A DNA stretch of 50,127 nucleotides, filler included, from Jimgerdemannia flammicorona (lineage: Eukaryota): assembly GCA_003990765.1 (NCBI GenBank). It is 2 parts of 2 records of this genome, joined end to end, with 100 filler letters (N's around TTAATTAATTAA, not from the genome) between each part and the next. Parts side by side here need not be neighbours in the genome. Positions count along the whole stretch, not along the records: positions 25,119 to 50,127 come from RBNJ01000893.1; 1 more part is not named here. One strand, written 5' to 3'. Positions 3,813 through 39,002 of the stretch are shown here, piece after piece. The number at the start of each line of letters is the position of its first letter. The first letter of the stretch is position 1. Both the position numbers and the translations under genes were made by a program. Below the pieces are notes generated by a model. That model had not been told where the DNA came from. It saw nothing but the letters and a program-made list of their open reading frames with translations, and made no database searches.

Positions 3813-3893
3813 GATACTAGTAGCTTTTCTCCAGAAACTATGTTGAAAGTGTTGCCAAAAGATTGTGTAACCTGAATATTACCAGAGAAAGGC

Positions 3894-14744: not shown

Positions 14745-14858
14745 ATCTATCTTGTCTGAATGTCTCAGTTATATAGTTGTTTGGATAGTGGTGGTTATTT
14801 ATTATTTAGCTTAAAAGTGAGGGATTCATCTTAAATTACTAGTCAATAAACACTAAGT

Positions 14859-15689: not shown

Positions 15690-17060
15690 CACATGGATAA
15701 AAAAACAATATGTGAGTAAGAAAACAATGTGTGAGTAAGAAAACAATGCTTAATGAGAAAACAGTGCTTGGATAAGAAAACAATGCAAATGCATAATTAA
15801 GAAGACACTTCATGCATAAGAAAACAATGCTCAGGTAAGAAAACAACGCATTGGTAAGAAAACAGTGCGAATGCATGAGTAAGAAAACACTACGTATGTA
15901 AGAAGACAAATATGTGCATAAGAAAACAATGCTTGGGTAAGAAGACAACGCGGGTAAGAGAACAAGAATGGGTAAGAAAACAAGCGTGGGTAAGAAGTAA
16001 CGTGTTGGGTAAGAAAACAATGTGTTGGGTGAGAAAACAACACATTGGGTGAGAAAACAATGTGTGGGTGAGAAACAACATGTTGGGTGAGAAAACACAT
16101 TGGGTGAGAAAACAATGCGTTGGGACGCGTCGGGTAAGAAACAATGTATTGGGTAAGAAAACAACATGTTGGGTGAGAAAACAATGCATTGGGTGAGAAA
16201 AAAATGTGTTGGGATGCGTCGGGTGAAAAACAATGGTTGGGTAAGAAAAAGACGTGTTGGGTGAGAAAACAATACGTTGGGTGTGAGAAAACAATGTGTT
16301 GGGATGCGTCGGGTGAGAAACAACGTGTTGGGTAAGAAAACAACGTATTGGGTGAGAAAACAACACATTGGGTGAGAAAACAACACGTTGGGTGAGACAA
16401 CAATGCGTTGGGATGTGTCGGGTGAGAAAAATGTTTTGGGTAAGAAAACAACGTGTTGGGTGAGAAAACAATGCATTGGGTGAGAAATCAATGCGTTGGG
16501 TGAGAAATAATGTGTTGGGTAAGAAAACAATGTGTTGGGTGAGAAAAAAATAAGTTGGGTAAGAAAACAACGTGTTGGGTGAGAAAACAACGCGTTGGAT
16601 GAGAAAACATCGCATTAGGTGAGAAACAACGTGTTGGGTAAGAAAACGATGTGTTGGGTGAGAAATCAATGCGTTGGGACGCGTCGGGTGAGAAATAATG
16701 TGTTGGGTAAGAAAACAATGTGTTGGGTGAGAAAAAAATACGTTGGGTAAGAAAACAACGTGTTGGGTGAGAACAACGCGTTGGGTGAGAAAACATCGCA
16801 TTAGGTGAGAAACAACGTGTTGGGTAAGAAAACAATGTGTTGGGTGAGAAAACAACGCGTTGGGTGAGAAACAACGTGTTGGGTAAGAAAACAATGTGTT
16901 GGGTGAGCAAACAACGCGTTGGGTGAGAAAACAATACGTTGGGATGCATCGGGTGAGAAACAACGTGATGGGTAAGAAAACGACGTGTTGGGTGAGAAAA
17001 CAACGCGTTGGGTGAGAAAAAAAATGCGTTGGGACGCGTTGGGTATAATGCGTGTAAGAA
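15690..17060. repeat. Tandem satellite/minisatellite, ~21-bp monomer GGGT(G/A)AGAAAACAA(C/T)G(C/T)GTT with 30-bp variants and a ~187-bp higher-order duplication
   Basis: Roughly 60 visible monomers; the long ORFs in the track here are repeat artefacts. Confidence 0.95.
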
Positions 17061-18629
17061 AATGGGTGTGCATGTGTTAGAGAATATATGTGGGAGAAAG
17101 TGACACGAAGAGGTGACTTTCCAGGTCGTAACCATAATGCCAGCCCCCAACTCAATTGCCTTAGGCCAAAGCAAATAAAATCCAGGGCTACTAATTTGGA
17201 AAATCTTCGCCCAGCAAGAGTAGTTTCCAGTCTAGGTGGTTTGGACCGGTGGGTTAATCCGGCCAGCACTGTAAATATTGGGCCTCCCAAGCCAGAAAGC
17301 TAACCATGAACCCAATGAGCCACGCATAAACCCATTAGCCACGACTTTGTGATCATCAAGACCTTTATAGGCTGAGCTGTTTTGCAAATAATCGTCGTTG
17401 TTTCATTATCGTTTTTACAGGTTGGAACAGGATAAGTCTGTCCCATTTAGACAGATGGTAGATTAGTTTGACGTATATATATGAGCTGGAAAATTCGAAT
17501 CACCAGGAAAATAAATAACTCGAACGGCAGAAATCTCCAGATGAGCTATATATGATATCAACCTGGCTTTTTCTGAGAACCCTATGTTGCTCAAGAAAAG
17601 TAGCATACTGAACTATTAGGTCATCAATATGAGGCTTTCATTTCTTCTTCAGTGACGTAACTACCTACTACCTGAATATCTTTTTTTTCTTGATCAATAT
17701 AAGGATGTATCTCTAGATAGTGATAGTTGTCCAGCTTTACAAAATTATATAAGGTGCTTTTACATCATTTGTATTAGACTTCAGTCTATCTAATATATAT
17801 CTTATAGTAGCTAGTAATGATACAAATATCATATCAACTGCAGATAGGTTTATTTCTAATAGATAAATAGATAAATCTCTGAAATTACATTCTACTCCTC
17901 TATCAAGTAATTTCAAGATAGATCAATAGGGTAATTTAAGACTGATATACTTTTGTATTAAATTTATATCATTAATATATATATTAAAGTCATTTATTTG
18001 ATTATACATATAAGAGAAATGTTATCTCTCAAAATATCATCATAGTATATTGGTAGATTACAAGTAGTGTAATTGAAAGTATTATAATAAAAATTATAAA
18101 CTCAATAATCTTTTTTATAATTCTAATGATTTACTGAACAATCAAAATAAGTATAGTATAAATTATATATAGAATTATTAGAATGATAATAATATAGAAA
18201 ATTTCCATTCTCTCATTGAGAATTTCTATAGTACTAACTATAATATTGTAAATATCTTCAGTCTGATAATAAACCAACCAGATATTAGTAAGATATTTAT
18301 AGGTATTTCATAGAAATATCAGGCTTTGAAATAATATCAGAAGATGTTAGTATGAACTTATATCAAAGATAATTAGCTTTAGGAAAATAAGACTCTTTAT
18401 TTATAAATATATATTTCAAACTATTACTATCCAATAGCTAAATCTACATACAAACTAAAATTTTATTATAATAACCTAACAATTATTTGAAATTCTTAAT
18501 TTTGCTATTAGCCAATACTTTGAATAGATAAATATATAATGAAATGCAAGTTTTGGTAATCTTGTAGTTTATAGTTAATGAGCTCAGGAATTTTGACTTA
18601 TTACTACTAGCTCTATAATAATGTATAGA

Positions 18630-21600
18630 GTAATATATCAATTTTCAGTCAAAGTCAGGGGCAAGAGATCTATGATATCTATTGTTATATATTTGAAAGG
18701 TCTTGATTTGATTTTGCTCAATCTAGGGGCATGGTCTTTTTAGTCTTGTTTGTTCTTCTGGCATTAGTTATATTGTTTTACAAATTGTCTAATATCTTCC
18801 TCCATATTAGGCTACTATATTGTTCTTCTTACTTTATCATATATATTGGTTCCTCCTAGGTAGCCTTGCTCATATATCTCTTTCATTATTTGCTCCTTCT
18901 TGTATTTAGGGATAACTATGCAGTTGTTTCTTCTGAGGGTTTCTCCATTGATTTCAAATTGTATCTATATTTGTTCAATAATTGTTTTTATCTATTCTTA
19001 TAGATGTTTGGACATTTTATACTGTCTGATATATGTGATGATTCTATAATAGAATTCTCTATTCATGGTAATGACTAGTATTGGTAGTCCTTTGGGGTAT
19101 CTGTAAGAGTGTATCTGTATTGGCATTGGTTCATTCTGATCTATAGATGATTATAGTATCATATACCTATAGCTTCATGGTCTAGCAGATATAGATTACT
19201 CTTTATTCAGTAGTAGTAAGAAGCCAGATTAATACTGCATGGTGTGTCTGAATCATGAAATATTGTCTGGTCAGGTAATAGTAGAAGAGATCTATAGCCT
19301 ATATTACAGCAGTATATTCTAGTTTGTATAATTTATAATCTCTCTCTGATCCTTAGATTTCTCTGTTGGTATAGACTATAACATATTCAATATTGCCTGT
19401 CTTCTATATAAGGACTACTTTGAATCTACATAATAGCACAAGTATCTGTAGTATAAATTCCTTGCTCCAGTCAGGATGTCATAGAATTAGTACTTGAATC
19501 AGTCTTCTCTTGAGGTAATTAAACACTTCTTATTGAAGTTCCTTCTACTTAAAGTTAGCTTTGGCTTCCTTCTTGAGCAGCTCATAGAGGGGTCCTGTGA
19601 TCTTTAAGAAGTTTTATATAAATCTTCTATAGTAGGATACTAGTCCTAAAAAGACTCTCAGCTCTATCTAATTCTTGAGTTTGAGATATCTGGCTATGAC
19701 TTTGATTTTGGAGTGATCAGTGTGAGTACCTTACTCATTGATAATATATCCAAGATAAGTAATTTCTGTCTCTGCAAAGATGCATTTCTTTGGCTTGATA
19801 AACAGACTATGTTACCTTAGTCTTTTGAAGACTTCTTCAATATGTCTGAGGTAGTCATGTTCTGTTTTGCTGAAGATAATCACATCATCTATATATACTA
19901 TAATCTATTTATTGAGATTGTCTTTGAATATAGTATTCATCATTCATTGAAAACTTCTGGGAGCATTGTATATTCTGAATGGTATTCTTTATATAATCTA
20001 TATATCATCTGGGGTTATGATGGCAGAGCACTTTTTGACTTTCTTGGTCATTCTTATCTACTAGAATCCTAAGTATAGGTTGAGTATAGTATATCACTTG
20101 AGCTTGTCTCCAAGGTTTGTCTGAATGGCTATAATATTTGGAAGAGGTTGTCTATCCTTCTTGGTTACTGTATTGAGTTTTCAGTAGTCAATACAAAGCC
20201 TAGAAGAAAATTCTCCTGGCTTGCTTTCTTTCTTCAGAGCTAGTATGATGAGAGAGCCCCAGGGACTGATCTCTTTCTTGATTATTCCAGTCTTCTCCAT
20301 TCTATTATGTTCTTCCTTGAGCTATTCTCTATAGGCTGGTGATAGTTATTGAGTCTTTTGATAAATTGGTTTAGCATCTCTAGTATTAATATCATAAAAG
20401 AATTGGGGTTTCTTCTTCTTAATATCAGTCAGAGATGTAGTAAGCATATTCTTCTATTGATTTATAAGCTTTCTGAGTTCTAGTTTCTTAGTGAACTTCC
20501 TTCTGATAGTATAGCTATACTTGTCTAATACTTGCTCTGATTAGTGCTTAAGTTCTGTGATTTTAGTAGTCAGGGTATTACTTCTTCTGATGGATCCAAA
20601 TCCTTGTAGTCCTCTTTTAGTGATGGAGAGTTAGTTGGTTTCTATGATTCTTGGTTGAGTGATAAGAAGGACTAGTATTTGTACTATGCTGTCTCCAGTC
20701 TTGACTTCAAAGAAGATTGTTGAGTTCTGATTTCTAACTATTATTATGACTTTTCTTATATAGTCTGGATTGATATCTCCTCCTTTAATCAAGATATTGC
20801 ATTTTGCTATACTACTTCTTGCTTTAAGTATTCTGACATATCCTTGAGATAAGGCTATAGCTAGGCCAGTTTCAAGTAAGGTACTTGTCTGTAGTTTGAT
20901 GATTGTATCAGAAGTGCTAGTAAGGTCAAGTCTAGCAGTATTCTTGGTTTTATATTCAGGTATTCAAGTATCTTTATCAAATCTCTTGACTCTAAGTATG
21001 AGATCTTTCTCATCATTAGAGTCTTCTCAGAGAGCTGGGGGTTTGTCATCCTTTTCCTTCTAGATCTGCTCAAGTTGATTCTTCAAGAATACTTTTTTTC
21101 TTTATCTGATTTGTTTCCTAACTTCAGTGATACATTGCCAGTAGTCATTTAGGTATTCACTATAATACATTCTGGTAATATAGAGATATCATTCTTGAGG
21201 AGCATATTCATCAGTGATCTTGAGATACTATTGCTTATCTGTCAGAGGCATCTTCTGCTTGGGTTTCGATGTGTATATGTAGACTTCAGTTTCTTCACTA
21301 CTTTCTTCCTCTATCTTAGAATACAGTCCTTTATTGATACTGATGGAGATTCTAAGCTTCTTGCCATGGTAGATAATCTATATCTTCTGAGCATTCATGT
21401 TGATTATGGCCCTTGCTTTGCTGAGCTACTAGTTGCCAATCAATAGATTATAATTTATTATACTAGTTATAATTATATCAATAGGGATAGTTGTATTACC
21501 AAACTTGATAGAGACATCTCTGATATTTCTCAGTAGTGTGGTATAAGTTCCATCAGTAGTGATAAATATAAGCTTTATAGCTTCTTCTATCTCTCAACTA

Positions 21601-23716
21601 AAGTGGTTGATGGCTCAAGTATCCTCCAGCTTCTGTATTAATGATAGCTTTGAAGATATTGTTTTTGATCTGGCAGATAGTATAGGCTGAGGTCTTGCAA
21701 TTATTCTTGCTCTCAGTGCTATCACTTTCTTCATCCTCCTCTTCTTATTCAGCATTATTGATCTTGATGATCTTGTATTTTTAGCTTCCTTCAACCTCAG
21801 ACAATCCTTTCCTGAGTTGTTGTCTGAATACAGGGATTTCTATCAGTTGTATAAAGGTCACACTGGCCTTTTATTCCTTCAGGTCCTTGAATATATCATA
21901 CTTATACTACTTGGTCTTATGAAGTTTCTGTTCTTTCTTTCCTTTACTAGCTGGGGAGGTTTTTTGGATGATTTCTTCAATAGCTCATTTTAGGTCTTCA
22001 TCTTACTCTATATCTTCAGTGACTTTTTCATTGATAGTGATCTTGAGTACTTCAGTCTTCTTTGGGTGTCCTACTGACTTCTTCTTATTATAGAGTACAC
22101 TTCTTCTCTTGGTCTTCTTTAATTCTATAGAGTAGGCTGACCATTCTTCATCATTAGCTTCATTACCAATTTCTTCAATAGTGATGATGTTTGCTTATTC
22201 TTGGGCCTTAGTTACATTACTTGGCTGAGCTCTGACCTTTGTTTTGATTATGCAATCCTTTGCAAAGTGGTCTTCTTCTCTGCATCTAAAGCAAGTATAG
22301 GTCTAGATGTGAGTTTCTTCAGTGGTTACTATTATAAATCATTGGGTAGATCTTGGTTTCCTTATTTCTTTTATAGTATCACTTAGATGTGTGATCATTT
22401 CAGTAAACTTCTTAATAAGCTCTATTATTGGGTCCAGGTCTTCTTATTATGGTAGAAGTTGGGTCTTATTAATTATTACTATTGGGAGAGTAGATGTGAC
22501 TCACAGAATGTTCTTGAGCTATACTCCTGTGATTCTTTCTATTATGTAGCCTTGTGAGTATCTGGTAATCTAGTAACATTAGGTATAGACTACTTTTCCT
22601 AGTAGGTCTAGTAGTATAGGGGTCAATCATATAGCAAGAGCTATTTCTGAATAAATATCTTTTATGAAGGTTGATTCTGCAATTTAATCTCTGATAGCTT
22701 TAGCATAGTCTACTAGAACTATCTAGTAGTAGATCCTAGTATAGAAGGAGTTTGAGTCTTCAGCCATGCCTTGTACAATAGTATTGAGTTGGTCTCTGAG
22801 AGCTTGTTTGATTTCATCTATATAGTATATAGTTCAGAGCTATATATTGATGTTTGAAAGTCTGATATCATCATTTTCTATAATTGTTGCTCTAGCAAAG
22901 GCTGCTCAGACAAGTCCTTATAGGCTTACTGGTAGGAGGGCCAGTTGTTGTACTATTGTCAGTATGTAAATAGTAGTATACTATTCAAAATCTTTTATAA
23001 ATATAATGATTGACTCATCAGTAATATATATATTCTTGGAATATGGGGGGCCTGATATCTATCTTGAGGTCTTAGTTATTGTTAGTTACAGTTGTTTATT
23101 ATTTAGCTTGAAAGTGAGAGATTTATCTTAAATCACCAGCTAATTAGCACTAAGTTGTAACATAGTAGATATTTATTCCTTAAAGTATATTATACTTCTT
23201 TATCTTATCACATAGAGTTCCAGACTCTAATATTCTTGATTTGGTAAGTTGTCTCTTATTCTTGAGTATGAAGCATAGTACTGAAGATAACTTTTATCAG
23301 AATACTACTCTCTTTAAGAAGTTGCTTTATCTTTAAGATATTTTGAACTGAGATTTATTTACTTGAATTACTGGGTATTTATATACTTTGTTTTGATACT
23401 GTAACTAAGTAATAGTGGCTAAGTTATACTATATTATCTTTCAACAATTATAAATATGAGAATAGAATACAGAAATAGTTTATAAGTAGTGAAGTCTTAA
23501 TCAGATAATTGCTACAGATATAGCTAACTATAGTAAGGTTAAGTAATATAAGCCAGATATAGCTATTGTTCATTATATAGTTCCAAATATATGTATGCTA
23601 TCATCTTCTAAGCCTCTGAGTATAAAACTAAGTATGAGTATGAGTATATAGATAAAGTTAAAAGAGTTACCTATTTATATAATTTATGCTCAGCCTATTT
23701 TGTATACTATATTACA
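18630..23716 (-). mobile_element. Ty3/Gypsy element B (5' LTR 23156-23716, gag-PR-dUTPase-RT-RH), truncated early in integrase
   Basis: Colinear with A. LTR reads TGTAAC...ATTACA followed by ATAT. RT motifs RLCIDY*KLN and VDDVII; integrase breaks after ITIDIIDLLPLTLTEN. Confidence 0.92.
20585..20963 (-). pseudogene. dUTPase domain between protease and RT in Gypsy B
   Basis: TARLDL (AGxDL), TGLAIAL..GY..LKARSS, GGDINPDY, TGDSIVQI and KRGLQGFGS cover all five dUTPase motifs. Confidence 0.9.
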
Positions 23717-23825: not shown

Positions 23826-25018
23826 AGCTTCTTTCTCCACTACCTTACTGGTCACAAGATTTGGTAGGCAACCTTCTGAGTCCCCTTTCCCCTATTATTA
23901 CCCCCTCTACCTTGGGTTGGTTTGCTGTGCCTGTATGAGTATAGTGGGAGGAGGGCAATGGTGATGAGTTGCCCCTTTATTGGTGTTGGATCAGTGTCTT
24001 CTCCACTTTTTCACAGTTTCTGGTGTCTTCGGCTACATCTGGAGTATATCTGTTTTGGTGCAGTATCTTCTTCCTTTTGCCATCACCAATAAGGTGCTGT
24101 CTCGGTGTGTCTCAGGCTATATAGGGAGTCGGCCAACCTTGGGCATCAAGTGCTCAGTATAGATTATCTATAGGTTCTCAGTGCCTATGATGGGGCCCTC
24201 TGGCTTTGGCAAGCTTTCTGGCAAGTGCAGTTCTGACATAGGTAACTGTTTTTCAGGTATTGTCAGGATGGGAGGGGAGATAGCTGTCACAGATAAGAGG
24301 ATGGGCAATTATGGTGAACCAGTGGAGTGCCAGGCTGGGGGTGGTTATTGAGACTGGGACAGATAATATTTTGGTAGGGCCTTTCATTTGGCTGGTGGGG
24401 GGTGGGGTGGTGCAGGGGCCAGTATTCTGGCTGTACCCAACTGGAACCAAGAGCTGATACAGCAATGTGATTGAGGCCTGTAGGCTTGAAGAGTGGGGTC
24501 TTCCTCATTTGGTAGTATCTGACTAGAACCAGAAGCTGATATGGCAATATGATCAAGGCCCACAGGCTCAGAGAGTGGGAGTGGGGTCTCTTCAGACCCT
24601 AGCCCATGTATAAGTCCTTTGAGGAAGGTACTGCATGTAAGTTCTTTACTCACCTGCTTTGAATCTACTTTGCTCTCTGTTGGTTAGTTGGGGGGTTTTT
24701 TTCTTTACCTCAGGCTTTCTTTTGGAGTTTAGAGGGCTATTCTTTATTCAGTTCCAGTGTTGCTAGATCTGATCATAGGTGTGCTCTTATATATAAATAA
24801 TGATCCAGCCCTAGTGAGCAGACAAGTCTAGTCTATATTGTAGGAGTCAATGTAGCTAGTGTTCAACAGGTATAACTAGAGTGGTGGGACTGCTGGACAA
24901 TTTAGTAGTCTAGGTTAATGAGGAGATATTATTCGATGGATAGTGGGGGAGGGTTTTGGCCTATATAGTCTAGGTTTCCTTCCAATAAAAATCTGCAGAA
25001 CTATGAGTCCATTAAAAA
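23826..25018 (+). mobile_element. Non-autonomous poly(A) retroposon X, copy 2 (tail runs into the assembly gap)
   Basis: Starts at the same TCTTTCTC.ACTA.CTTACTGGTCACA motif and ends GAGTCCATTAAAAA like copy 1. It has an internal ~80-bp duplication (24444 and 24526). Confidence 0.8.
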
Positions 25019-25118
25019 NNNNNNNNNNNNNNNNNNNNNNNNNNNNNNNNNNNNNNNNNNNNTTAATTAATTAANNNNNNNNNNNNNNNNNNNNNNNNNN
25101 NNNNNNNNNNNNNNNNNN
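25019..25118. other. Assembly gap with artificial linker N44-TTAATTAATTAA-N44
   Basis: Symmetric 100-bp spacer with stops in all six frames; contiguity across it is not guaranteed. Confidence 0.95.
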
Positions 25119-27220
25119 GTACTTCCTCCTAGCCGCCCCCCGTAGCCCATTAATGTTCAATGAGAATATCCTAGTTGTACTGTTCATATTGAATAGATAT
25201 TGTAGAAGAGACCTCAACCTATAATTCCATGCTCATCTCATCCCTCACCAAGTCCAAGAGCTGCTCAGCTTCCAATTCACCCTCCACAATATCCCGAGCA
25301 TCCAGTGCCCCCAAGATTTCCTGACACTCCACCCTGTCCACCTCCTCCATATCTGCCCTGTAATCCAAGCAGACTGCTCGCCACTTCTCTAGTCCCTTCC
25401 TCAAGTTCCACAAGACAAGCACCCTGTCACTCGCAATCCTTCTAAGCTCCTCCTCTCACTGATCATCAACCTGATACTCAACCAACTCCAGGAGGACCAC
25501 CAGGATCTCATTCCTCATCTTCCTCGGCACCTCTTCCCTATGTAGAATCTCCTCCCAATGCCTCTCCTCCATCACCCTGAAGTCCTCACCCCCCAGCTCC
25601 TCAGCCACTACCCCTTCAAGGGTCTTCCACATCCACTTCTCCTCATCTACCGCCTCTGCCGCCCCCTGAGCAATCTGTCCCCCATCCACCTCGGGGTCCA
25701 CCAGCACACTCCTCCTCACTGACTCATCCCACTCCTCATCTGGCACATCCATCAGCTCTTCCTCACCTCCTGCCCCATTTGGAATACTATACTGAGGGCG
25801 CCCACCTTCTCCCATTTCAGCATCCACCTCCAAGTTATCCTCCCTCCCCTCCCCAACTCCAATCTGAGCCCTGCCCTGGGCCATCTCTCCCCCTTCAGCC
25901 CAGGCGCTCTCCTGCAACCCTGCAGCCCCTGCCCCAGAGCTTCCACCAGCCCCACCCCCACCCAACTTCGCCAACAACTCCTTCTGAATCCTCCTCCCCT
26001 GCAACTTCTCCCAGGCCCCCTTCTCTATCCGAACCCTCTTCCCATCCATCTCCCCCACCACCGTCCTGGCCTCAAACTCCTTCCAGGCTAATCTCCTCCT
26101 CGCAACTGCCCCTTCCAGATCCTCCAGAGCCTCCAACAGGTCCTCCTCCTCCTCCTGAGTCCCCTTCACCCTGGTGACCTTATACTCTACTTGTCCCCAC
26201 CTCAGCACTGCTGGCCAGTCCCTTGACTTCCCCATATTCTCTTTTCCAGCCAATCTCACCCTAACATCGACATCTCCAGTTCTAAGCTCCATGCCCTCCC
26301 AGACCTTAAACCCAACATCCACAATCTCGCCATACTCCTTGATCGCTTCCACAACCAACTCCCTGGTCCTTTCCTTCGACACCGTAGAGAGGTCCAACAC
26401 CATCAACTGCACCACCCGGGGGTCCCAGCATATATACCGGGCCATAGGGACCACAACCCCACCAATCATCACCCCCTTCTCCATGGCTGTCAACAAGGCG
26501 TCCTCCTCCTCAAACCCCACCTCAACCCCTTCCTTTCCCCTCAAGAACTTCACCGATGCCGCTCTCTTAGCCTCCAGCACCACCAGCCCCAAAATCATCC
26601 TCACCATCACTGCCAAGCCCTGGAAGCACATCGTGACCGCAAATTCGGACCACAACTTCTTGAGTAATGGGGTCGACACCATGCCCGTCACCCCATCCAC
26701 CAGGTCCCTGGGCCTCGTGCCCACTCCAAGTCCCAAATTGCCAACTGCCATCACATCTGGATTTTTTGCCAGATCCCCAGTCACAGCCCCATCAACAGTC
26801 ACATCTCCAGCCCCTACTCCAGCCCCTTCCCTACCACCAGAAGTACCCTGGGGTGTACTTCCCTGACCCCCAGCAGTAGCCATCGATGCCTTCCCCAGGC
26901 CCAGCCAACTATCCAGCCCAGAAGCCATCTTCCCCATCCTGACCTTGTCAGCAAAGGTCAACCTCTCCCCTCCTCTCTGCCTCAGACCTCCCCTCCCTCC
27001 GCCACTGGGGCCTCAGCTAGCCATCAAGGCCCCTGGCATCCCCAAACCATCTCCCCTCCTTCCCACCTGCTGCCAGCCAAAGGTGCCATCACCCCCCTGG
27101 CCAGTACACTCACCAGATCGATCATTGCCATCCATGTTGTTAGTCGTTGGACACCAAAAACATTGTAAAAAGTGTTGTCTGAGTCTTGTGTCACCCGAAT
27201 GTTACTGGTGAAAAGGTGTG
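25119..27220 (-). mobile_element. L1/Tx1-like LINE copy c (5' end, ORF1, first codons of ORF2), inserted in the chromovirus integrase; rest lost in the gap
   Basis: Shared 5' motif at ~27185-27220; ORF2 start MNSTTRIFSLNINGLRG at 25187. Confidence 0.9.
25219..27135 (-). pseudogene. LINE c ORF1 (638 aa, frame intact, two TGA stops)
   Basis: ATG at 27135 to TAG at 25219 is 639 codons and includes the 501-aa track ORF. Confidence 0.85.
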
Positions 27221-28300
27221 GGAATAGATCTCTATGGACTTCATTGTGCAACTACTCCAAACCAAAAATAGAAAAGATGCAATTGTTGTCTTTGTGGACT
27301 ATCTCAGCAAATAAGCCTACTTTGTACCAACCACCACCACTGCAATGGCACCAGAGATAGCCACACTCTTGTTTGATAACATTTTCCACTATCATAGTCT
27401 TCCTAAGATAATTGTTAGTGACCATGATCCGAAATTCATCAGCCATTTTTGGAAAGCCCTCTATGCACACCTTGGAACAAAACTTGCACTATCTATAGCC
27501 TTTTACCCAGAAACTGATAGCCAAACTGAAGAATGAACCAAACTCTGGAATAAATACTAAGGAACTATGTTTCCTACAGACAAGATGACTGGTATGAATA
27601 CCTCACTGCAGTCGAGTTTGTCTATAACAATAGCAAGCAAGCCTCTCTTGGAATGACCCCATTCTTCGCCAACACTGGACAAAACCCAAACACCCCTTTA
27701 ACACTTATCTGAACCACTGAAGAACTCTCCATAGTTGAAGCTGTTGAAGAATTCTTACTCCGAATGTGCAATCTAAGCCAGATCACAATTGAGAATTTAT
27801 CGCAAGCTCAAGAACAACAGTCACAGTATGTTAACCAATACTGCCAAGAAGAAACCTTCGATATTGGAGAAAAAGTTCTACTAGACATCCAAGGATACCA
27901 AGTTGACAACCTCAAGTACAGACTATCTATGAAGCTAAACAGTAAGTTCATTAGACCATTTGAAGTCATCGCACAAGTCTCTCCTACCTCCTACAAACTG
28001 GTACTACCAGACACCATTAAGATTCACCCAGTCTTTAAGGTCCAATGTCTCAAGTAATACAATGAGAATGATGACAAGCTATTTCCAAACTGGACCACTA
28101 AACCACCTGCACCTGTCATTATTAATGACCAAGAAGAATACAAAGTTGAACAAATCCTCAACAAACATGGCCACAAGAACCACCCAGAGTACCTTGTCAA
28201 ATGGAAAGGTTACCCGATTCATGATGCAACCTGGAAACCCAAGACCAACCTCCAGAATACTACTGACTTAGTTCAGGAATATGATTCCTTGAACACCTAA
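27219..28300 (+). pseudogene. Integrase C-terminal part with chromodomain
   Basis: EEYKVEQILNKH...EYLVKWKGYPIHDATWKPKTNLQN is a canonical chromodomain. Confidence 0.92.
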
Positions 28301-29012
28301 AACCAAATACTCTGTACCTATCCGTACATACTATATATTATTGTCCTGAACACTATAATTATCAAAAAATCAAGAACTCAGTAAAATAAGACAAGAATAC
28401 TGACTCTCTGGAAAAAGTAGCAAAACTGAAAGCCAGCCTATTCTCCCCATACCACTAGTGGGAAATGAGGCATAGACATTTAAGAAGATTCCATAGAAGA
28501 AATTCTCTAGCAGTGAATGATATCAGAATCACTTCCAGCATACAGCATTGAACACATGACCCTTTAATGTATGAATCCAACACATTAGGTAACTATACTA
28601 TGAGCATGCCACTTTCTGAGAAAAATGGACTTTACTAGACTTTTGATCTCCCAAATGGTGTAACAACACTAGAACAAAATTAGAAGGCCCTGATGAGGAC
28701 ATCGAAAGCTAAGAAGGGGAGAGTTGTAAGTACACAACCTCCAAGCCACTGAAATTACATGTCACCTCTGAACAAGCTACTGAAATCACATGTGACCTCT
28801 GAACAAATCTAGAAATCACCTGCTCGATCACAAAGCTGAGTCAAACCAAAGTCACAGTGCACAAAGCTGAGTCAATACAAAGTCACAGAATACAAGATTC
28901 ACATAAATGGAATCTTACCAATCAGGACCAAATACATATATACTGAGCACCGAGATGTGTCAAATCAGAGAACCAAAACAAACAACAACCACAACTTCCA
29001 AAACACACAAAC

Positions 29013-30436
29013 ATGATCACCAAGATCTACACCTGTATCTGCACTGACATTTAGAATGCCATTATCAACTGAGCCACACCCCCTCTACCCCTTATGAATA
29101 TCCATAGCCTAGCACCCCTCTAGTTTGTGGAAGCCCAATGGAATGCTCTGAACATGCTTAGCGAGGCCCATCGAATCAGACAAATCTTAAGGTACTATCA
29201 GATCAGCTGTCTCCTGGAAGATATGGTTGAACACCACCACAATACAGACATTACCCAGATGTCTCAACACCAGAAGCTCATTGCCTACAAACATCAAGAA
29301 CTCTTCTATGAGTATAGTACTGTTATTCCCCACCTCCGAGTTACCACAGCCAAAATGGTTGCTACTCTGTCCTATGGCCAAATCGATGACATGATACAGG
29401 AACTCAACCACAAGTATCTCGAGTATGTCGAAACCACAGACAGAACCTTCCCACACCCCAATGATCATATCCTGCAAATGCCCCAAGTTGGATATGCTAT
29501 GAAGGATATCTATGATATAATCTACTTCAATAAAGACAAAGCAGAAGACAATAATCTCTCTGACACTGACATGATCTCTAGCCAAGGATCTCTGCCAATG
29601 CTGATCACACCACCAACCATACCGATGAACTTACAACAATTCATAACAGCATATGAGACATATTGGGATAATGACCACTGGCATGAATACCAACCTGTGT
29701 TTACTCCCGATTACTTCAACTACAATGAAGAGACCAGAGAACACAACCTGTACCTCTAGACTAGTGCTCCCAACAAATCGAATCAAATCAAATCAAATGT
29801 CCAATTCGATTCGAAGTTCGATTGAACCTTAATTTTCAAAATGTAATAACTCGACGAAAACACATCCAAATTTAACGTAATTTAGCTTGTTAGATTCACC
29901 GTATTAATGTGATTCTAACAAGCTAAAGTACGTTAGATTTGGATGAGTCTATGCTGAGTTATTGCATTTTGAAAATTAGGGTTCGAATCAGACCCTCAAT
30001 TCGATTTGACTTTTGATTTGATTCGAATTGATTCAAATTGAAAAATCCCCAATTCGATTCGACTCATTTGGGAGCACTACTCGAGACAGCCCTTGAAATT
30101 GAACCAACCACTCCACCACCTAAGTATGAGCGACATGAACCACAGCTGCCAGCTTACTACAACCCCACGACTCATAGTGCTATAACCCACAGAAGGTATG
30201 CAGACCGCGAATTCAATGAAAGTGAAGATGATGTACTCCTCCTTCACCCACCAACACCTTATCCAGCATATGAGACAGATGATGCTATTCTGTGGGATGG
30301 TGACAAAGTTTCAATGTATTATTACCTCAGTGAACAAGGAGAAGTAATCCGCGAACCACTCTTCCTAGATGACTACTTCATCAGAGATGATGCAATTGAT
30401 GGTGATATCATCGAAGACTACCCAGACAGTGCCTAA
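29013..30436 (+). pseudogene. Accessory ORF (365 aa reconstructed) inside the putative LTR, split by a hAT-type MITE
   Basis: Removing the MITE and one TSD (326 bp) fuses track ORFs 29127-29759 and 30038-30436 in frame (NLYL|ETALEIE). The ATG at 29013 is in frame, with three revertible stops. Confidence 0.8.
29762..30079. mobile_element. hAT-type MITE, 318 bp
   Basis: TIR TAGTGCTCCCAA...TTGGGAGCACTA; 8-bp TSD CTC(T/G)AGAC; subterminal ATTCG/CGAAT repeats; palindromic core. Confidence 0.9.
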
Positions 30437-31099
30437 ACCTATAAATAGCCTAGCCATCATACTATAGTTAGATTAGCCTTATATAACGTGACTGTAAACT
30501 GACTCAGCAGTCAGATGATCTCTTAACATGTCAGATCACACTTGTACTATGTGACTGCATTCCCACTCAGCAAGGCACTTAGTGCTACATCCATATTCAG
30601 CATAGTCCAGATAGCCCCTCACTAGTATAAATATCCCCTCCCCCAAACCTCAGAATCTCAGACTAAAACACGCCAGAATATTCCTGAATACTTCCCAACA
30701 ATATCTCTTCACACAACTACTCCTAGTATAGCAACATTATGAATAGCAAATAAACCTATTTAATAACCCACAAACTACTCTTAAGTAAATCTGCTCCCCA
30801 TTAGGTCCCACTCCTAACCCATCACGAAATTTCCTAATTGGGCATTGTCTGCAGCAATATGCTGATTCAACTAAGCTAGTCTTAGTTTCTTGAACTTTCT
30901 GAAATATAGAAAATCCTGAACATCCAGAACTAGTCTGAAAAAGGACTTTGGTTGAGACATTAACCTGATTTGAAATCAATATGTACTCCATATGAAATTG
31001 ATCTTGACCATAAGAAAACAGTCTTCTATTATATCCAGAACTTCCAGAAAACCCTTCTAGAACTATGTAACAGTTATCCTAAAAAGCAACCCTCTTACA

Positions 31100-33174
31100 T
31101 TTTCAGTGAATGATGAACAGAGTCTTCAGCAATAAGATTGGAAAATAGCTCTTTATCTATGTTGATGATGTGATCATCTTCAGCAACACTGTACAGGAAT
31201 ATATCAATCACATACAGCTAGCCCTCAAGAAGCTGAAGGAGTATGGCCTTTACATCAAGCCCAAGAAATGCAAGTTTGCAGCTCAAGAAATCACCTATCT
31301 AGGACACCTTATTAACCAGACTGGAATCCACACAGACCCTATGAAGATTGAGGCTGTTGCAGTCTATCTGAGACCCAGAATGACTACAAAAGTCTATGCC
31401 TTCCTTGGACTGGCCAGGTACTACAGAAGATTCATCAAAGGATACTCCAACATTACAGCACCTATCTGCAAGCTACTGAAGAAGGAAACCAAATTTGAAT
31501 GGACCAAGAAATGCCAAGAAATCTTCAATAAACTCAAGACCAGATTGACCAAAGTACCTATCCTCAGAAGACCAGATTGGAATCTAGAATTTGTCTTGTA
31601 GACAGATGTGAGTACTATAGGACTTAGAGCAGTCCTAGCTCAGAAGAAAGATTGACATGAATATATCATCTCCTATATAAGCTGAGATATCCACAGAGCA
31701 GAACAGAACTATGAGTCATGTAAGCTTGAATGCTTAGCAGTAGTTTGGGCAGTAGACAAGTTCCACTACTACCTAGCCAGGAAATACTTCACCATACAAA
31801 CAGACCATTCTGCTCTTGTCTGGCTATTCCACACTCTGAACCCCAAAGGAATATATACCAGATGGATCCACAGGTTGCAAGAGTATGACTGTTCTATTAA
31901 GCACTGCTCAGGAAGAACTAATATCAATGCTGATATACTCTCAAGGACACCCTGAAATACCTCTATCAAATTACTCAATATGAATAAAGAGTTATACTAT
32001 GGATTAATCAGCTATCTTAGGTAGCAGAAGATACCCAACCATCTTGAACCCTGGACAATCACCATCATCAGCTAAACTTGGAAACAGTTTGATCTAGACA
32101 ACACTATACTCAGAAAAAAAGAAAAGCTAGTAATACCCAAATACAAAAAGTATCAAGTAATAAAGGAAGTACATGAGCAAGGATACCTAGGAGGACCAAT
32201 ATATATAATAAGGCAAAAAGAACTATATGGTGGCCTAAGATAGAAGTAGACCTGTGCCAATTTGTCAAAGAGTATGATAAGTGTCAAAAACAGAAATAGG
32301 ATCAGCAAGACCAGGCACCTGGGTCATCAAGAATTGAGCCTATTCCCTGCCACCACATCACAATAGATATTATTGGGCCACTACCAGTAATATTATCAGG
32401 AAACCACTATATTATAGTTATTGTAGACCTCTTTACCAAATGAATAGAAGCAGGAGCACTACAAGAAGCCAATGCCCTCTCTATAGCTGACTTTCTATAT
32501 TGAGAAATCATCTGCCACTACAAGACACTGAAGCAAATCACAACAAACTATGGCACAGAAATTGTCAATGGATTCCATGAGATAATGTTTTAGAAATATA
32601 AGATCCAGCATATCAAGACTACTACATACCACTCTCAAGGAAATAGACAGACAGAGAGAACCAACAAGACCCTTAATAACATCATGGTAAAGATCTCAGA
32701 GACATATGAGAATTGGGATAATTATCTCTCAACTACCCTCTCTGTCCTACAAGACATACAGTCACAGAGCACACACTTTACCCCAAGGAAACTGCTCTTT
32801 GGAGTAAAAGATTCTGATGGAACCTCAGCTACAAATCTAAACCTAACTTGGATTTAAGTCAATGCAGAAATCTGGAGACTATACCAAATCAGGAAGAAGA
32901 CTGAAGATTACATCATTAAGTTACAAGCACTGATAAGGAAGAATACAGAAAAGAATCACAAGACCTAGAATCTATCCAAATTGGAGAAAAGGTCCTACTG
33001 TATCAAAATATGGTAGAAGCCTCATGGTCATGAAAACTGGAGCCCAAATAGGAAGTACCCTTCTATGTTCAAGATATCAAGAAAACTACCTTCTGGCTTA
33101 GAAAAATCTCAGAGACCATACAGCCTACCATAGTACATAGGAACAGACTCAAGAAGTACCATGAACCTATATAA
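31100..33174 (+). pseudogene. Gypsy D pol fragment (RT-RNase H-integrase)
   Basis: Motifs as above; integrase ends VHRNRLKKYHEPI*. Confidence 0.9.
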
Positions 33175-33302
33175 GAGAAGCAAAACATGATAACTACCTA
33201 TGAGATTCTAGTCTGCAAACACACCTTTCTCAGCTAACATTCATGTTACACATACTTTACAACATACCCTCAAGTCGTTTATTGGAGAAAGGTGATAAGG
33301 AA

Positions 33303-35326
33303 ATGGCAAACAACAAGTATTCTGGGTTGCATACTGGGCAGGGTGCCCCTAGTGTATTCGACTGGCAGCAGGTGGGGAGAGGTCCTGGCCTGGGGGGTGG
33401 CATGAGAGGGCTGTTGGCAGGAGGATAAGGAGGAGGTGGAGGTGGCAGTGGAGAACAGCAGTCTGGGAGAGCAAGCTTCACAGAGATGGTGAAGGGGAGG
33501 CAGCAGATGACAGGGCTAGAGGGTTGGCTGAGGAAAGGCAAGGAGATGGGATGACGACAGTTCGCAGGAGAGTAGCACTTGGGGGCAAGAGCAGTGGAGC
33601 TGGGGGAGTAGTGACTGAGAGGGGTGTGATGGCTGATGGGAACAGGACTGCCAATCTGAAAAAAAATCCAGATGTGATAGCTGATAGTATGGCTGAGCAA
33701 CTGAGGCTTGGAAGGCAGTGAGATTTGGCAGATAGTGTAATTGGCCTAATAGTGGTACCATTACTCAAGAAATCAATCTCAGCATTTGTGTTGACATTGT
33801 GCTTCTGGGGCCTGGCAGTGATGGCAAAAATGGTGCTGGGGCTTATCACTAAGCAGATGGCTGGAGCAGAATCTGTGAAGTTCCTGAAGGAATTGGAGGG
33901 AGTACAGGTGGGTTTTGAGGATGCTAAGTCTCTGGAGAAAGCACTGAAGATTGGATTGATCATTGGGGAGATGTGTGTCCCAATGGTGCACTATCTGAAA
34001 TGAGACCCCAGGGTGGTCCAACTGTAGGTGAAAGAAGTGCTCATAGTAACAGCAGTGGAGATGAGAAGGAGAGTCAAGGAGGTCATGGCAGAGTATGGCA
34101 AGATAGTAGATATTAGGTTCAGGGTCTGGGAAGAGACCTCACTCAGGACTGGGGATGTAGATGTGCAGATTTGGCTGGCAGGGAAAGAAGCTATAGGAAA
34201 GACAAGGGACAGGCCTTTGGTGATGATCTGGGGGGTGATCTTATGCAAGGTGACAAGGGTGAAGGGGAGTGAGGAGGAGGAGGAGGACTTGCTGGAGGCA
34301 CTGGAAGAGATGAGTGGAGTGGTACAGCAGCAGGCAAAGGCCTGGAGGTCCTTTGTAGAGTCAACACACTTGGAGGTAGTGGATGGGAAGAGGATCAGAG
34401 TGGACAAGGGGCAATGAGAAAAAGCTCAGGGCCATAAATGTCAGAAGGACTTACTGGCTAAGATGGAGAGTCAACCACTGAAGGAGGAAGGTGGAATGGT
34501 GGAACTGGGGGATGCCAAGGCAAGTGTCTTGGCCAGCAAGAAGGGTGGGAGTGCAGGGAAAGGAACAGAGGAGGACAGGAAAGCAGCTGGTGGTAACCCA
34601 TATGCTGATGGTATGTTCAAGGTCTGGGAGGAGAACTGGGAGAGATTGCCTACCTCTATGCCTCTCATCAGACAAGGGCCAGCTTACCAGAGCAGAGCAG
34701 GAGAGGATGTGCCAATGAAGGGGGCTCAGTGAGTACAATTTGGCATGCCTGAGGTAGCAAATGGGGGACAGGTGGTGGCAGTTGGAGAGGAGGAATTGGT
34801 GGATGTTCCAGAGGTATGAGATGAGGCTGCGAGTGTCAGGGCTAATACCATGATATTGGATAGTGGGAGACTGGCAACCCCAGGAGGGAAGGAGGTGGGA
34901 AATCTACTTTGGATGTGCAGGATGATGAATAATCTGATGGCTGAAGAGCTCAGGAAGGTGGACTTGAGAGTGATGAGTGATGAGCATTGGGCATGGGTAT
35001 TACAGAGAGATGGTGTGAAGTTGGCATTGAAGGCAGAGATCCTTGTGGTGTATCTGGAGGAGGAAGAGTATGAGGTGGATAAGGAGTGAGAGGTTGAACT
35101 AGCAGGGATTACCAGTGAGAGGGCCAAGTACTATTGGGCCAAGTGACATGGGTTGCAGCTCTGGCAGGAGGCCTGCCTGGAATACTGAGAGGAGTTTGAG
35201 GAGAAGGTAGATGGAGAGATGAATGAGCTATTGGCTGGATTGGAGGCTCAGAGGGCTGAAGAGGAGGCAGTGACTCCAGGACATAATCTGGACATGGCAC
35301 AGGAAGAGATGAACTTGGAGCAGTAG
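33303..35326 (+). pseudogene. LINE d ORF1 (decayed)
   Basis: MANNKYSG...FDWQQVGRG...RTGDVDVQIWL...EMNLEQ*. Confidence 0.88.
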
Positions 35327-35358
35327 AGATAGACTAGATAAAAACACTATACTTTAAT

Positions 35359-38300
35359 ATGAATAGTACAACCAACATTTTTTCACTGAATGTAAATGAG
35401 TTATAAGGTGCTTCTTAATGAAGAAACATTTTTACTTGACTGAAGGGATTAGAGGCTGATCTCTTCCTCTTGCAGGATGTTGGGTGTAAAGATGATTTGG
35501 ATAAACTGGAATGGATGAAGGAATGGAGAGGTGAGGCAGTTTGGATGGGCAAGGTTGGGATTCTGATATGGAAAGGCAGAGGGGAGATAAAGGATATGGA
35601 GAGCTGAGGGAATAGACTGGTCTGGGGCAAGTGGATACATACTGGATAGGAGCCAATTACAGTTGGATCTTGTTACTGCCCTGCTGTATAGGGTGAGCAT
35701 GTAGACTAGGTGAAGGGTCTTCAAGTGAGTGGGACACTTACAGAGGCTGGGGTAGATGTACTGAGTAGAGACTTTAATATGGTTCAAGAGGTACTGTTAG
35801 ATAGAACAGATGGAGGAAAAGGAGTTGAGGGTCAGAGTGGAGGGCTGGTGGCATGGAAGGAAGTAGAAAGGCTGAGTGCTCTGGTGGATATAGGTTGGAA
35901 GTGCTGGGGGGATAGGAGGGTATACACACATTGGGCAGGAGGCTTGGGGACAAGAATTGATTGGATTCTGATGGCCAGCTATTGGGGTTTGGATGTTTGG
36001 AGATCACTGGAGGTGGAATGGTGTCTTAGGTCAGATTATTGGGGGATTCTCAGACAAGGTCAGTTTTGGGAGAGTGGGGATGAGCCAGGACATTGGTGCC
36101 TCAATTCCTCCCTGTTAGATGATAGGATCTGGTGGGATGGGTGGGCTGCAGACATTTAGCTACAGGTAGAGTTTTGGAGGAGGAAGGTACTCCAGTGGGT
36201 ATTCAGTAGATGAGAATGAAGGAGATGGCCAAGGCATACTGGAGTGAGGCTGGCAAGGAGGCTGGGAAACAGAGGAGGCGAAAGGTGAGATGGTCTTCTA
36301 GTAGACTGTCTAGGCTCTTAGGCAATTGGGCGAGACTGGTAACATTGGAGGGAGAGGAGAATTGGAGGTCTATAAGGGTGAAAAAGGAGGTTGGTAAACT
36401 ACAACAGGTGCTGTGGGAGGAGGAAGAAGTGAGGGTGAAGGGCTTGACAGCTAGGCTACATTGGCAAGTTTGGAAGAAGGGGAGAGGCCCTCTAAGTTTC
36501 TCATTTGGGCAAGGGGCATGCAACAAAGATGGGAGGGGGTGCTCAACTCTGATGGTGTCCTGGTCCATAGTATTCAAGACATTCTGGGATCTTTAAAGGA
36601 GCACTGGAGTGGATTGTGGAGTGAGGAGGAGGGTGGGGTAGATGCTGATGCAATTGGCCATACATTAGAAGATTGGCAATCTCTATAAGTAGATGGGATG
36701 GGTGACTTAGTGTTGCCAGTCCAAGAGGAGGAGATCTGCCAGGTTCTTGTCATGACAATGCCAGGTATGACACCTGGAGAAGATGGTTTGCACTGGGATT
36801 TCTGGAAGAAGATGGTTGAGATCCCTAGAGTACTGGGGGAGATAATGGCATTGTGTGATCTTATTTTACAGACAGAGAGATGGGTGGAGGAACAGGATCT
36901 GGGGTTGGTGACATTGCTCTATAAGAACAAAGGAAGGTGAGAGGACTGGAAGAACTGGAGGCTGATTATGCTCTTGGATATAGACAGAAAGTTGGTTACT
37001 AAGGTGGTAGTTGTGAGACTACAAGTAGTGGTACAGCAAATCTTGGGTATTGAGCAGAGGGGCTTTATAGGGAGATGGCTTATTAGGGATGGCATGGCCT
37101 GGGAACATGGAGTTATTGAAGAGATACATGCTTGTGGATTGGATGGGCACCTGGTCTTCTTGGACCAAGAGAAGGCTTATGACCAGATGAGGTGAGTCTG
37201 GCTGGCAAAGATTTTGGATAGGGCTGGGGTTCTGTACCAGTTCTGGTCAGCAATAGTCAGTCTACTGGAAGGGAGTAGAGTGGTACTCATGTGTAATGAA
37301 CATCGAAGAATGGCTTTTCCCCTGGGTAGGGAGGTGCCTCAGGGGGACTCATTGTCCCCCATTTTATATGCCCTTTTCCTGGAACCACTACTGGATAGAA
37401 TCAGGTGGAAGATAGTGGGGCTCTCCATCTTTGGTATTGGGTTGAAGGTAGGGGTCTTGCAGATAATATGGTTGTCAGACTGGATTCAATTGCTGATGTC
37501 AAGGAGCTTAAGGAGACAGTGAAGTGGTATGAGGAGAACTCTGGAGCGAGACTTAATCAGCATAAGTGTGAAACAATGGTGTTAGGCAATGGTCTGGTGG
37601 GTGGGGAGGTTATTGGAACAATCGTTTCTGCTGGTGAGGCAGTGCAGTACTTGGGTATCTATCTATTGATATATGGGTCAGTACTACCCAGGCTTTGGTG
37701 AGAGCAGTGGGTTGGTATCTGGGGGGAGGCCCTGTGGAGTTGGGGGGGTCATCAATTGTCTCTGACAGGGTATGTTACAATTTTGAACATTTATTGGTTG
37801 CCAAAGTTGTGGTATCTGGCATATTATCTGGACTTTCCATCCTGGATAGTGAAGCAGCTAATGAAGCTTGCTAAGGGATAGATCTGGGCTAGAAGGAGGA
37901 GTCGATAAGCTGGGAGGTCTTGTCCTTGCCAGTGGCAAGTGGTGGACTGAGACTGATTGACTTTCTGAAGAGGCTATACTGCTTGAGGGTTTAGTGGTTA
38001 AAGAGAGCCATAGAATTGAGAGGTGGTGGTTAGATTCCCCTATTGCAGAAGGTTTGGAAGAAGCAGTCCTTGCTAAGAGGCTCAACTGGCAATTTCCTTT
38101 CTCTAGTTAGACTTCAGAACACTAAATATTTACTATATAAAGGTTTCTGGTGGGGAATAGCAGAGGGGGCACACTGTATCAGGATCTGTTGGCAGAGAAA
38201 TGAAGGAGAGGAGAATTGGGACATGGCGATGTAGAGATAGTTCTGGGTGTTACTGAGCAGCATCCCATTACTTAAGTTTGACATTAGTGATGAGATAGAC

Positions 38301-39002
38301 TGCCAGAGGGAAGTGGGCCAGGATCTGTGATGTAGTGGTTGGCAAGGTATAGGAATTGATGAGACATAGGACTGACATAGTATTTGGGCATGGAGTGCAG
38401 AGGTGAGAAGATGGATACTGCTGAAGTACTGGGTAACTTGGTGGTGTATGCTAAGGAGGAATATCATGCTCAATTACTGCTCAGGTCATCTTATTGAGGG
38501 GGGTTGATTTGACTGCAAGGAGTGCTATAATATAGGATAGGAAGGGAGTTATGTACAGATGCCTGAACATTGGCTAGGAGAGTTTGAGATACTTAGTGAC
38601 TTTTGGCAGACTGTTGGGGATCATTTAGGAATAAGGGGTAGAGGATCTGGCATGCAGGGGTGGTGGGAGAATTTGAGAGACAGACTGGTGGTGAGGGTGA
38701 GAAAGAAATAGCTCTCGCTAGGCTGGGCTCTGGCCATTTGGGTCAGGTTGGTTGGCCACTGATTATTTGTTTTCGAGGATGGGAGGAGACTGGGCTTGGA
38801 GGTCTGGCTGAGGTAGTGGCATGGCCTTATAGAGAACAACTTGACAGGCTGGTGGCTCAGTTGGAGGATGCAGGGGGGCTAAAGGCATCATCTGGTGGAG
38901 AAAATTTATAGGCAGAGTGGGGGAAGAGTGGGAGTGGTGAGGGAGAAGATGGTTATTGCTTGGGTTGGAGTGGGGAGAGGCCCCCCTATGGGGATTGGAT
39001 AG
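35359..39002 (+). pseudogene. LINE d ORF2: APE-RT-Cys/His C-terminus (decayed)
   Basis: APE motifs; RT motifs TPGEDG, NWRLIMLLD, LDQEKAYD, VPQGDSLSP, LADNM (ADD) and YLGI; CKEC..EHW; ends PPMGIG*. Confidence 0.92.

Follow-up and report, generated by a model that had tools for sequence, protein, structure and literature searches.

A candidate accessory gene inside a proposed long terminal repeat of a chromodomain Gypsy element in Jimgerdemannia flammicorona

We analysed a stretch of 50,127 nucleotides from the genome of Jimgerdemannia flammicorona (assembly GCA_003990765.1), hereafter called the window, in which positions 25,119 to 50,127 stem from record RBNJ01000893.1. The window is a heap of nested, decayed transposable elements that has been heavily rearranged. 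Within it, Pfam and tblastn matches revealed two plus-strand fragments of Ty3/Gypsy retrotransposons, here called element A and element B, which surround a unit carrying an open reading frame (ORF) at 29013–30436. This ORF, a candidate accessory gene of element A, and the proposed long terminal repeat (LTR) around it at 28725–31099 are the subject of this work.

Element A comprises the 3′ part of a chromovirus pol gene (27186–28297, plus strand), encoding the integrase core, an SH3_Tf2-1 domain and a chromodomain. The Pfam scan covered 138 of the 165 frames of at least 70 amino acids in the window, the 27 omitted being overlapping frames in a repeat array at 15.6–17.3 kb and in GC-rich segments resembling long interspersed nuclear elements (LINEs). 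In element A, it matched rve at 27315–27533 (E=0.0026, below the curated cutoff), SH3_Tf2-1 at 27713–28054 (E=2.6e-14) and Chromo at 28058–28297 (E=2.2e-15). By tblastn, the fragment (27186–27557 and 27530–28282) is collinear with residues 1132–1499 of the chromoviral polyprotein P0048. Element A has the integrase followed by a C-terminal chromodomain that marks a chromovirus, the rve match being weak. As read from the sequence, the chromodomain carries the aromatic residues of the classical type, which points to fungi or non-seed plants as far as the available parts of PMC2864245 and PMC3350952 go. The 5′ side of the element is lost, with GC-rich, LINE-like DNA interrupting it near 27050–27186, and no further plus-strand remnant of it was found in the window by Pfam or tblastn. 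Downstream of the pol stop follows a non-coding spacer (28298–28710, plus strand) with stops in all three frames. Element B (31100–33171, plus strand) is an older, non-chromoviral Gypsy copy that retains the C-terminal part of the reverse transcriptase (RT), RNase H and integrase (tblastn; Pfam RVT_1 and RT_RNaseH); its nearest relative is P0004, with 81% identity over 290 amino acids. The integrases of the two elements are of different types, and on this ground we rejected the idea that A and B are tandem copies with a common LTR.

The accessory ORF (29013–30436, plus strand) spans 365 codons if an inserted miniature inverted-repeat transposable element (MITE) and one of its target duplicates are skipped, as established by translation of the frame and alignment with two related proteins, P0002 and P0001. 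A reading of this DNA made from the sequence alone (the sequence-only reading) had described a 365-residue ORF at this place. A frame of that length exists, but it is not open in the window copy: the ATG at 29013 is followed by TAG at 29052, TGA at 29070 and TAG at 29121, and another TAG lies at 29757 in the 5′ target duplicate. With the MITE and one duplicate again skipped, the frame from stop to stop (29124–29756 plus 30080–30436) comprises 328 codons. P0002, a protein of 128 residues from a JGI metagenome contig of 1180 bp, is 84% identical to the window frame and begins at the same place, with W, R and Y replacing the three N-terminal stops. P0001 (247 residues, ENA metagenome contig of 998 bp) is 65% identical and remains open through the C-terminal two thirds, including an acidic tail.

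Relatives of the ORF-bearing unit also occur in soil metagenomes. We aligned Logan contigs from four soil-metagenome runs of three studies (X1–X4) to the window at 80% likeness; individual contig pieces are described here for 32 of 7048. Position 29053 is G, giving TGG, in 295.8 of 305.8 depth in X1 and in all depth of X2–X4, and the stop at this position is private to the window copy. Because of this G and the W, R and Y of P0002, we take the ATG at 29013 as the probable true start; the window copy is a pseudogene whose intact counterparts exist elsewhere. That the frame is kept open at 84% and 65% identity in independent contigs argues for selection. Moreover, among the indels listed (12 of 70), those within the ORF form a single compensating pair at 29346/29352, as against seven indels in the preceding 700 bp. 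We are highly confident that the ORF is a functional gene of the element family.

The MITE that interrupts the ORF is 318 bp long (29762–30079), as determined from the sequence, a self-comparison and empty sites in contigs. Its terminal inverted repeats begin with TAGTGCTCCC, its arms are self-complementary at 80% over 29776–30033, and it is flanked by 8-bp target duplicates, CTCTAGAC at 29754–29761 and CTCGAGAC at 30080–30087, which differ by one mismatch. It is therefore short and non-coding with terminal inverted repeats and an 8-bp target duplication, as a MITE should be, and the MITE that had been removed from the frame in the sequence-only reading was confirmed. Presumably it is of the hAT type, an assignment that we base on the length of the duplicates alone. 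One contig each in X2 and X4 carries the empty site, joining 29753 to 30080 with 8 letters that fit both sides. At further joints, between two and nine other letters fill the site, and the frame is preserved. The MITE is private to the window copy.

A full HMMER search of 1.84 billion representative proteins returned only P0001 and P0002 as true relatives of the accessory protein; a third match, P0003 (E=3.7e-4, six stretches), was dismissed as a repeat protein. Among proteins longer than 370 amino acids, no fused form was found. Neither the pieces of the ORF nor its relatives matched a Pfam family at E≤1, the PDB held no sequence relative (best E=0.56) and the ESM Atlas held none. Searches for a related DNA locus in metagenome contigs (with a 211-residue frame and with a two-row alignment), viral contigs (with the frame and with P0001) and genome contigs (with P0001) returned pattern matches and no relative. 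It had been proposed that the protein consists of a shared domain and an acidic, Pro/Tyr-rich tail. The first part of this proposal could not be confirmed, since tblastn at E≤10 with any part of the protein gave only self matches and noise and hence no second copy in the window. The tail was borne out: the C-terminal 118 residues have an isoelectric point of 4.1 and contain 11 Tyr and 13 Pro. In the modelled sequence, the isoelectric point is about 6 for the first 100 residues and 4.1–4.3 for the remainder. An AlphaFold2 model with a mean predicted local distance difference test score (pLDDT) of 41 placed three long helices in the first 105 modelled residues and little else. Judged by these searches, the accessory protein is an orphan that has no family, fold or known function.

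Upstream of the ORF we found the polypurine tract (PPT) AAGAAGGGGAGAG at 28711–28723 (plus strand), the sole purine run of at least 12 within 27000–31200. One base past its end, at 28725, begins TGTAAG; both features had been noted from the sequence alone and are present. The exact inverted complement of TGTAAG, CTTACA, lies at 31094–31099 (6 of 6 letters). The segment 28725–31099 thus starts right after a PPT, and its TG...CA ends make up a short inverted repeat, as in an LTR. We propose that it is the 3′ LTR of element A (plus strand), on the basis of the PPT, the termini, the boundary with element B, contig depth and contig joints. It measures 2375 bp, which falls to 2049 bp once the MITE and one duplicate are subtracted.

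Several candidate control signals flank the ORF within this segment, all on the plus strand. Two different sets of 31-bp tandem duplications lie at 28742–28819 and 28829–28888, the second of which holds TGAGTCA twice (28837 and 28868), and TATATA follows at 28937, 76 bp ahead of the ATG. We infer that 28742–28888 and TATATA form an enhancer- or promoter-like 5′ part of the U3 region. Downstream of the ORF, TATAAA at 30626–30631, close to where a TATA box had been predicted, is a candidate promoter of the genomic RNA, which would put the border between U3 and R about 30 bp further downstream. AATAAA at 30749–30754, 120 bp after the TATA box, is a candidate polyadenylation signal in R. For it to fall within the LTR, the LTR must extend to 31099. 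An end at 31099 results in an ordinary U3-R-U5 layout, and an end at 30736 leaves no AATAAA inside. In every aligned contig of all four runs, positions 30455 and 30456 read C>A and A>G relative to the window, and a patch of about 14 bp at 30969–30983 is replaced. The 3′ part of the window LTR copy therefore carries private changes.

The 3′ end of the unit was located from the start of element B. In tblastn, the RT alignments of four Gypsy polyproteins (P0014, P0029, P0033 and P0040) start at 31101, in the motif ..FQ.MMN.., and those of P0048 and P0004 start at 31110; upstream of 31101, no significant RT match was obtained. In X1, seven contigs match from 31100 on and carry other sequence before it. 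Their consensus there reads ..LFGICNAPAS, which is the RT motif expected just before FQ.MMN. Since in these other copies the RT motif that is missing here extends all the way to 31100, element B is cut at 31099/31100 in the window. We also used 56 of 61 anchored polyproteins, the other five having fewer than 150 residues upstream, to build a profile covering the 140 RT residues that precede the boundary. On 30737–31100 this profile scored at most −1.9 bits in any frame, a value reached by 220 of 300 shuffled sequences, and on 28299–31100 at most −3.0 bits. As positive controls, two unrelated minus-strand Gypsy RTs of the window scored 126 and 88 bits. At a position fixed independently by the boundary of element B, the CTTACA match has a chance probability of about 1 in 4096. 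The repeat unit thus most likely ends at 31099 rather than at 30736, where the sequence-only reading had placed an ACA end: the inverted repeat, the boundary of element B, the RT profile and the enclosed AATAAA all fit 31099 better.

Other explanations for the DNA between the ORF and element B were considered and rejected. An RT of element B that reaches upstream to about 30760 would favour an end at 30736; weak motifs were visible by eye only, and the profile found nothing. Relaxed tblastn gave five collinear matches at 30967–31074 and one at 30760, no commoner than expected by chance. The ORF is also not the gag gene of the downstream element, as it holds no gag domain and neither a protease nor an RT N-terminus lies between it and 31101. 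As a separate observation on element B, TGA is found at 31107–31109, where RT relatives have Arg in FQ.MMN, and P0004, a predicted protein from another contig, begins at a Met just past this site. The TGA may be common to related copies of element B.

The flanks of 28725–31099 come from different elements, with the pol gene, spacer and PPT of element A on the left and the middle of the element B RT on the right. They are not contiguous and share no common target duplication. The unit is therefore not a simple nested insertion, and the arrangement fits a 3′ LTR of element A sitting in element B.

The contigs allowed us to compare depth along the locus, with the caveat, given by the tool itself, that contig depth is not copy number, so that this evidence is weak. 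Summed depth in X1, X2, X3 and X4, respectively, was 359, 25, 19 and 72 in the integrase-chromodomain region (27304–28308), 806, 63, 38 and 106 in the N-terminal part of the ORF (28711–29715), 1537, 138, 139 and 221 at 30319–30720, 2138, 101, 246 and 213 at 30721–31122, and 387, 18.5, 22 and 51 in element B (31123–32500). Depth rose 4.1-, 2.2-, 8.7- and 5.5-fold at the bin starting at 28711 and dropped 3.8-, 7.1-, 7.0- and 4.0-fold at 31123. On this measure, the unit 28725–31099 is more abundant than both flanks. The ORF region had 2.2, 2.5, 2.0 and 1.5 times the depth of the integrase region, again in contig depth and not copy number; in three of the four runs the ORF part is thus at about twice the internal region, which fits two LTRs per element. 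For the 3′ part of the unit, the ratio to integrase depth was 3.1–7.3 across runs. In addition, two X2 contigs join 30742 and 29523 onto 28725 and 28724, respectively, and we read these joints as LTR starts nested in other LTR copies.

The spacer between pol and PPT differs among copies, with listed indels at 28305, 28314, 28363, 28365, 28620 and 28676. Contigs of X3 and X4 jump from 28186 to 28677 with 22 other letters instead, so that most of the chromodomain and of the pre-PPT spacer is missing from some relatives of element A. A joint from 27213 to 31104, seen in one contig with 22 letters on the shorter side, is probably spurious, and the sequence at 27160–27240 offers no explanation for it.

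Taken together, we consider it probable that 27186–31099 is the 3′ remnant of element A, a chromodomain Ty3/Gypsy element inserted in the RT gene of the older element B, and that its 3′ LTR at 28725–31099 holds the ORF. That the ORF lies in an LTR, whatever the exact limits of that LTR, we regard as very probable. Its placement in U3 follows from its position: at 29013–30436 it lies wholly between the LTR start at 28725 and both the TATA box at 30626 and the AATAAA at 30749. The proposal of an accessory gene past the PPT and inside U3 is thereby supported, though only indirectly, through the adjacency to the PPT, the 6/6 terminal inverted repeat, the truncation of element B and the non-contiguous flanks, but not with an LTR ending at 30736.

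Several observations weigh against this interpretation. The main one is that, in three of the four runs, depth at 30319–31122 is roughly double that of the ORF part. This deeper 3′ third fits better-conserved control regions or LTR variants that lack the ORF, and it would also be produced by a short LTR located after the ORF. The alignment of one listed contig breaks off at 30744, and one joint departs from 30742, which indicates some discontinuity near 30736, not at a CA, in at least some copies, and no contig bridges 30744 among the 32 of 7048 pieces listed. In the window there is no second LTR, solo LTR or target duplication, and nothing else matches 28301–31150. An LTR of 2 kb is long for this kind of element. 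The AlphaFold2 model, made from four rows, is unusable at pLDDT 41. Finally, the promoter, the poly(A) site, the transcripts and the function of the protein are all inferred.

The depth of the 3′ third could be explained if the LTR were short, running from about 30431 to 31099 (TG...CA, about 670 bp), with the ORF being an internal 3′ accessory gene and the purine run at 28711 not a functional PPT. Top summed depth falls within 30319–31122 in all four runs, with 30319–30720 at 4.3, 5.5, 7.3 and 3.1 times the integrase region, and a length of about 670 bp would be more typical. Plant Gypsy lineages with an additional ORF in the stretch from pol to the 3′ LTR have been described (PMC11963269). 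However, no purine tract precedes 30431, the only run of at least 12 in 27000–31200 being that at 28711, and the CTTACA end pairs with TGTAAG at 28725 and with nothing near 30431. A short LTR also leaves the sharp depth step at 28711 in all four runs and the two joints landing on 28724/28725 without explanation, and predicts an ORF region at the depth of the integrase region instead of the observed 1.5–2.5-fold. We thus judge a short LTR to be unlikely. The breaks at 30744 and 30742, for their part, could mean that the LTR is 28725–30736 (TGT...ACA) and that 30737–31099 is a separate high-copy piece, such as a solo LTR of another family bounded by TG at 30740 and CA at 31098–31099 (360 bp); the ORF would still lie in an LTR. 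Yet both breaks fall 6–8 bases past 30736 and not at a CA, the CTTACA at 31094–31099 matches the start of element A in 6 of 6 letters, the stretch from the TATA box to the LTR end would contain no poly(A) signal, and element A would abut the separate piece with no target DNA between them. An end at 30736 is therefore rather improbable in our view.

That no paired copy is seen in the window, and that nested elements are piled up and heavily rearranged in this region, would also agree with 28725–31099 being no LTR at all, and instead an independent mobile or rearranged segment that follows the PPT by chance. The two flanks stem from different elements and share no common duplication, and the segment has TG..CA termini and starts one base after a perfect PPT that itself follows the chromodomain, which makes such a coincidence very hard to credit. 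Even less credible is that the frame arose by chance, or that it belongs to a captured fragment, now dead and without function. The lack of a family and a fold, the mere two database relatives and the broken window copy would suit this reading, but relatives of 247 residues (65%) and 128 residues (84%) keep the frame open, and among the 12 of 70 indels listed the ORF has the one compensating pair at 29346/29352, as compared to seven in the preceding 700 bp.

If the ORF lies in U3 as we propose, each LTR would consist of two sets of 31-bp repeats with a TATA-like box, the 365-codon gene, the TATA box at 30626, the AATAAA at 30749 and about 350 bp of U5 up to CTTACA. The genomic RNA would begin after the gene in the 5′ LTR and end after the gene in the 3′ LTR, and would thus carry the gene once, at its 3′ end. 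At each retrotransposition, reverse transcription would copy the gene into both LTRs, and LTR-LTR recombination would leave it behind in solo LTRs. For expression of the protein we favour an LTR-internal promoter at the repeat and TATA region, because the 31-bp duplications, the two TGAGTCA sites and TATATA at 28937 precede the ORF; it would yield a monocistronic mRNA of some 1.8 kb with its 3′ end at the LTR poly(A) signal. Alternatively, the protein might be made from a spliced subgenomic RNA. It would act in trans for the element family. The likeliest role would be that of a regulator, either a transactivator such as the foamy-virus Tas or an antagonist of silencing, though we put this forward only tentatively, and confidence in any particular function is low. 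We would guess that such a regulator combines helices in its N-terminal part with a tail that is disordered, acidic and rich in Tyr and Pro. It is conceivable, if rather doubtful, that each LTR is a self-contained cassette of repeat-driven promoter, ORF and poly(A) signal, so that an element would have two expressed copies and solo LTRs would keep making the trans-acting factor. In that case, the elements would draw on the protein in common, and it would outlast those that had spread it.

A comparable arrangement is known from mouse mammary tumour virus (MMTV), where the whole sag ORF lies in U3, between the PPT and the LTR promoter, and so is present in both LTRs. The likeness to our locus lies in an entire protein-coding ORF within the LTR, after the PPT and before the promoter. 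The accessory protein has no sequence similarity to Sag (no Pfam match), and MMTV is a betaretrovirus, whereas the element described here is a chromodomain LTR retrotransposon. Sag is a type II membrane protein, in contrast to the acidic, cytosolic- or nuclear-looking accessory protein. In human and simian immunodeficiency viruses (HIV/SIV) and foamy viruses, the 3′ accessory genes nef and tas/bet, respectively, extend past the PPT into U3, and foamy-virus Tas, a transactivator whose activation domain is acidic, is made from an internal promoter. These genes resemble our ORF in reaching U3, and Tas expression corresponds to the model favoured here; they differ in that they overlap U3 partially, whereas our ORF lies entirely within it, and there is no homology. 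With no Pfam match at E≤1 and no PDB match better than E=0.56, we found no sequence or fold relation to Sag, Nef, Tas or Bet, so that the arrangement is analogous and does not denote membership of a common family.

The ORF region of the MMTV 3′ LTR is treated in PMC2118998, as far as its accessible text goes. Plant Gypsy lineages (Retand and Ogre/Tat) and LTR elements of bdelloid rotifers carry extra ORFs beside gag-pol, according to the accessible parts of PMC11963269 and PMC5408684. These are likewise LTR retrotransposons with additional ORFs of unknown function, but as far as is known, their ORFs are internal, lying either past pol and ahead of the 3′ LTR or upstream of gag. Cassandra, a group of terminal-repeat retrotransposons in miniature (TRIMs), holds 5S rRNA-related sequence inside its LTRs (10.1101/2023.07.14.548913, as seen in part). 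As proposed for our element, it carries a functional gene-like module within both LTRs; in Cassandra, the module is a promoter for RNA polymerase III as opposed to a protein gene, and the element is non-autonomous. A phrase search of the literature, in the text it covered, returned MMTV only for ORFs in LTRs. A protein gene within an LTR is known from a few retroviruses and, as far as we found, not from chromodomain Gypsy elements.

LTRs are normally treated as non-coding control regions, are masked in annotation pipelines and, when solo, are counted as dead remnants. If the ORF is indeed a U3 gene, the gene dose would be doubled per element and solo LTRs could remain genetically active. Accessory genes in U3 have so far been a hallmark of complex retroviruses; they would then have arisen in a chromovirus as well, and the gene might offer a handle on how such elements cope with silencing by the host. 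Given the orphan status of the protein, with two relatives among 1.84 billion, its study could reveal a new kind of retroelement accessory function.

Elsewhere in the window, two diverged minus-strand Gypsy copies with a dUTPase between protease and RT were found at 10437–15330 and 18720–23207, sharing 76–88% identity in repeat families D3, D5, D6 and D11. Their dUTPase matches lie at 12364–12588 (E=5.6e-10) and 20634–20963 (E=5.4e-16); the first copy has protease, dUTPase and RT at 11.6–13.5 kb, and the second has its dUTPase at 20.6 kb. Between the two copies, 15890–17300 is a tandem array of units of about 20 bp (families D1 and D2, spacing 19–20 bp), which yields long spurious open frames on the minus strand. 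The GC-rich segments (47–57%) at 1–5800, 24000–27050 and 33200–39000 are unlike the AT-rich Gypsy DNA and have an extreme strand skew, with GC skew of −0.4 to −0.56 or +0.3 to +0.5. They are regarded as LINE-like because of weak Pfam matches to Exo_endo_phos (955–1461, minus strand) and RVT_1 (37196–37698, plus strand). One of them contains an open frame of 518 codons (25459–27012, minus strand) that matches no Pfam family. Near the end of the window, at 49488–49745, an 86-bp AT-rich unit is repeated three times in tandem, with 66–72% identity to the reference copy.

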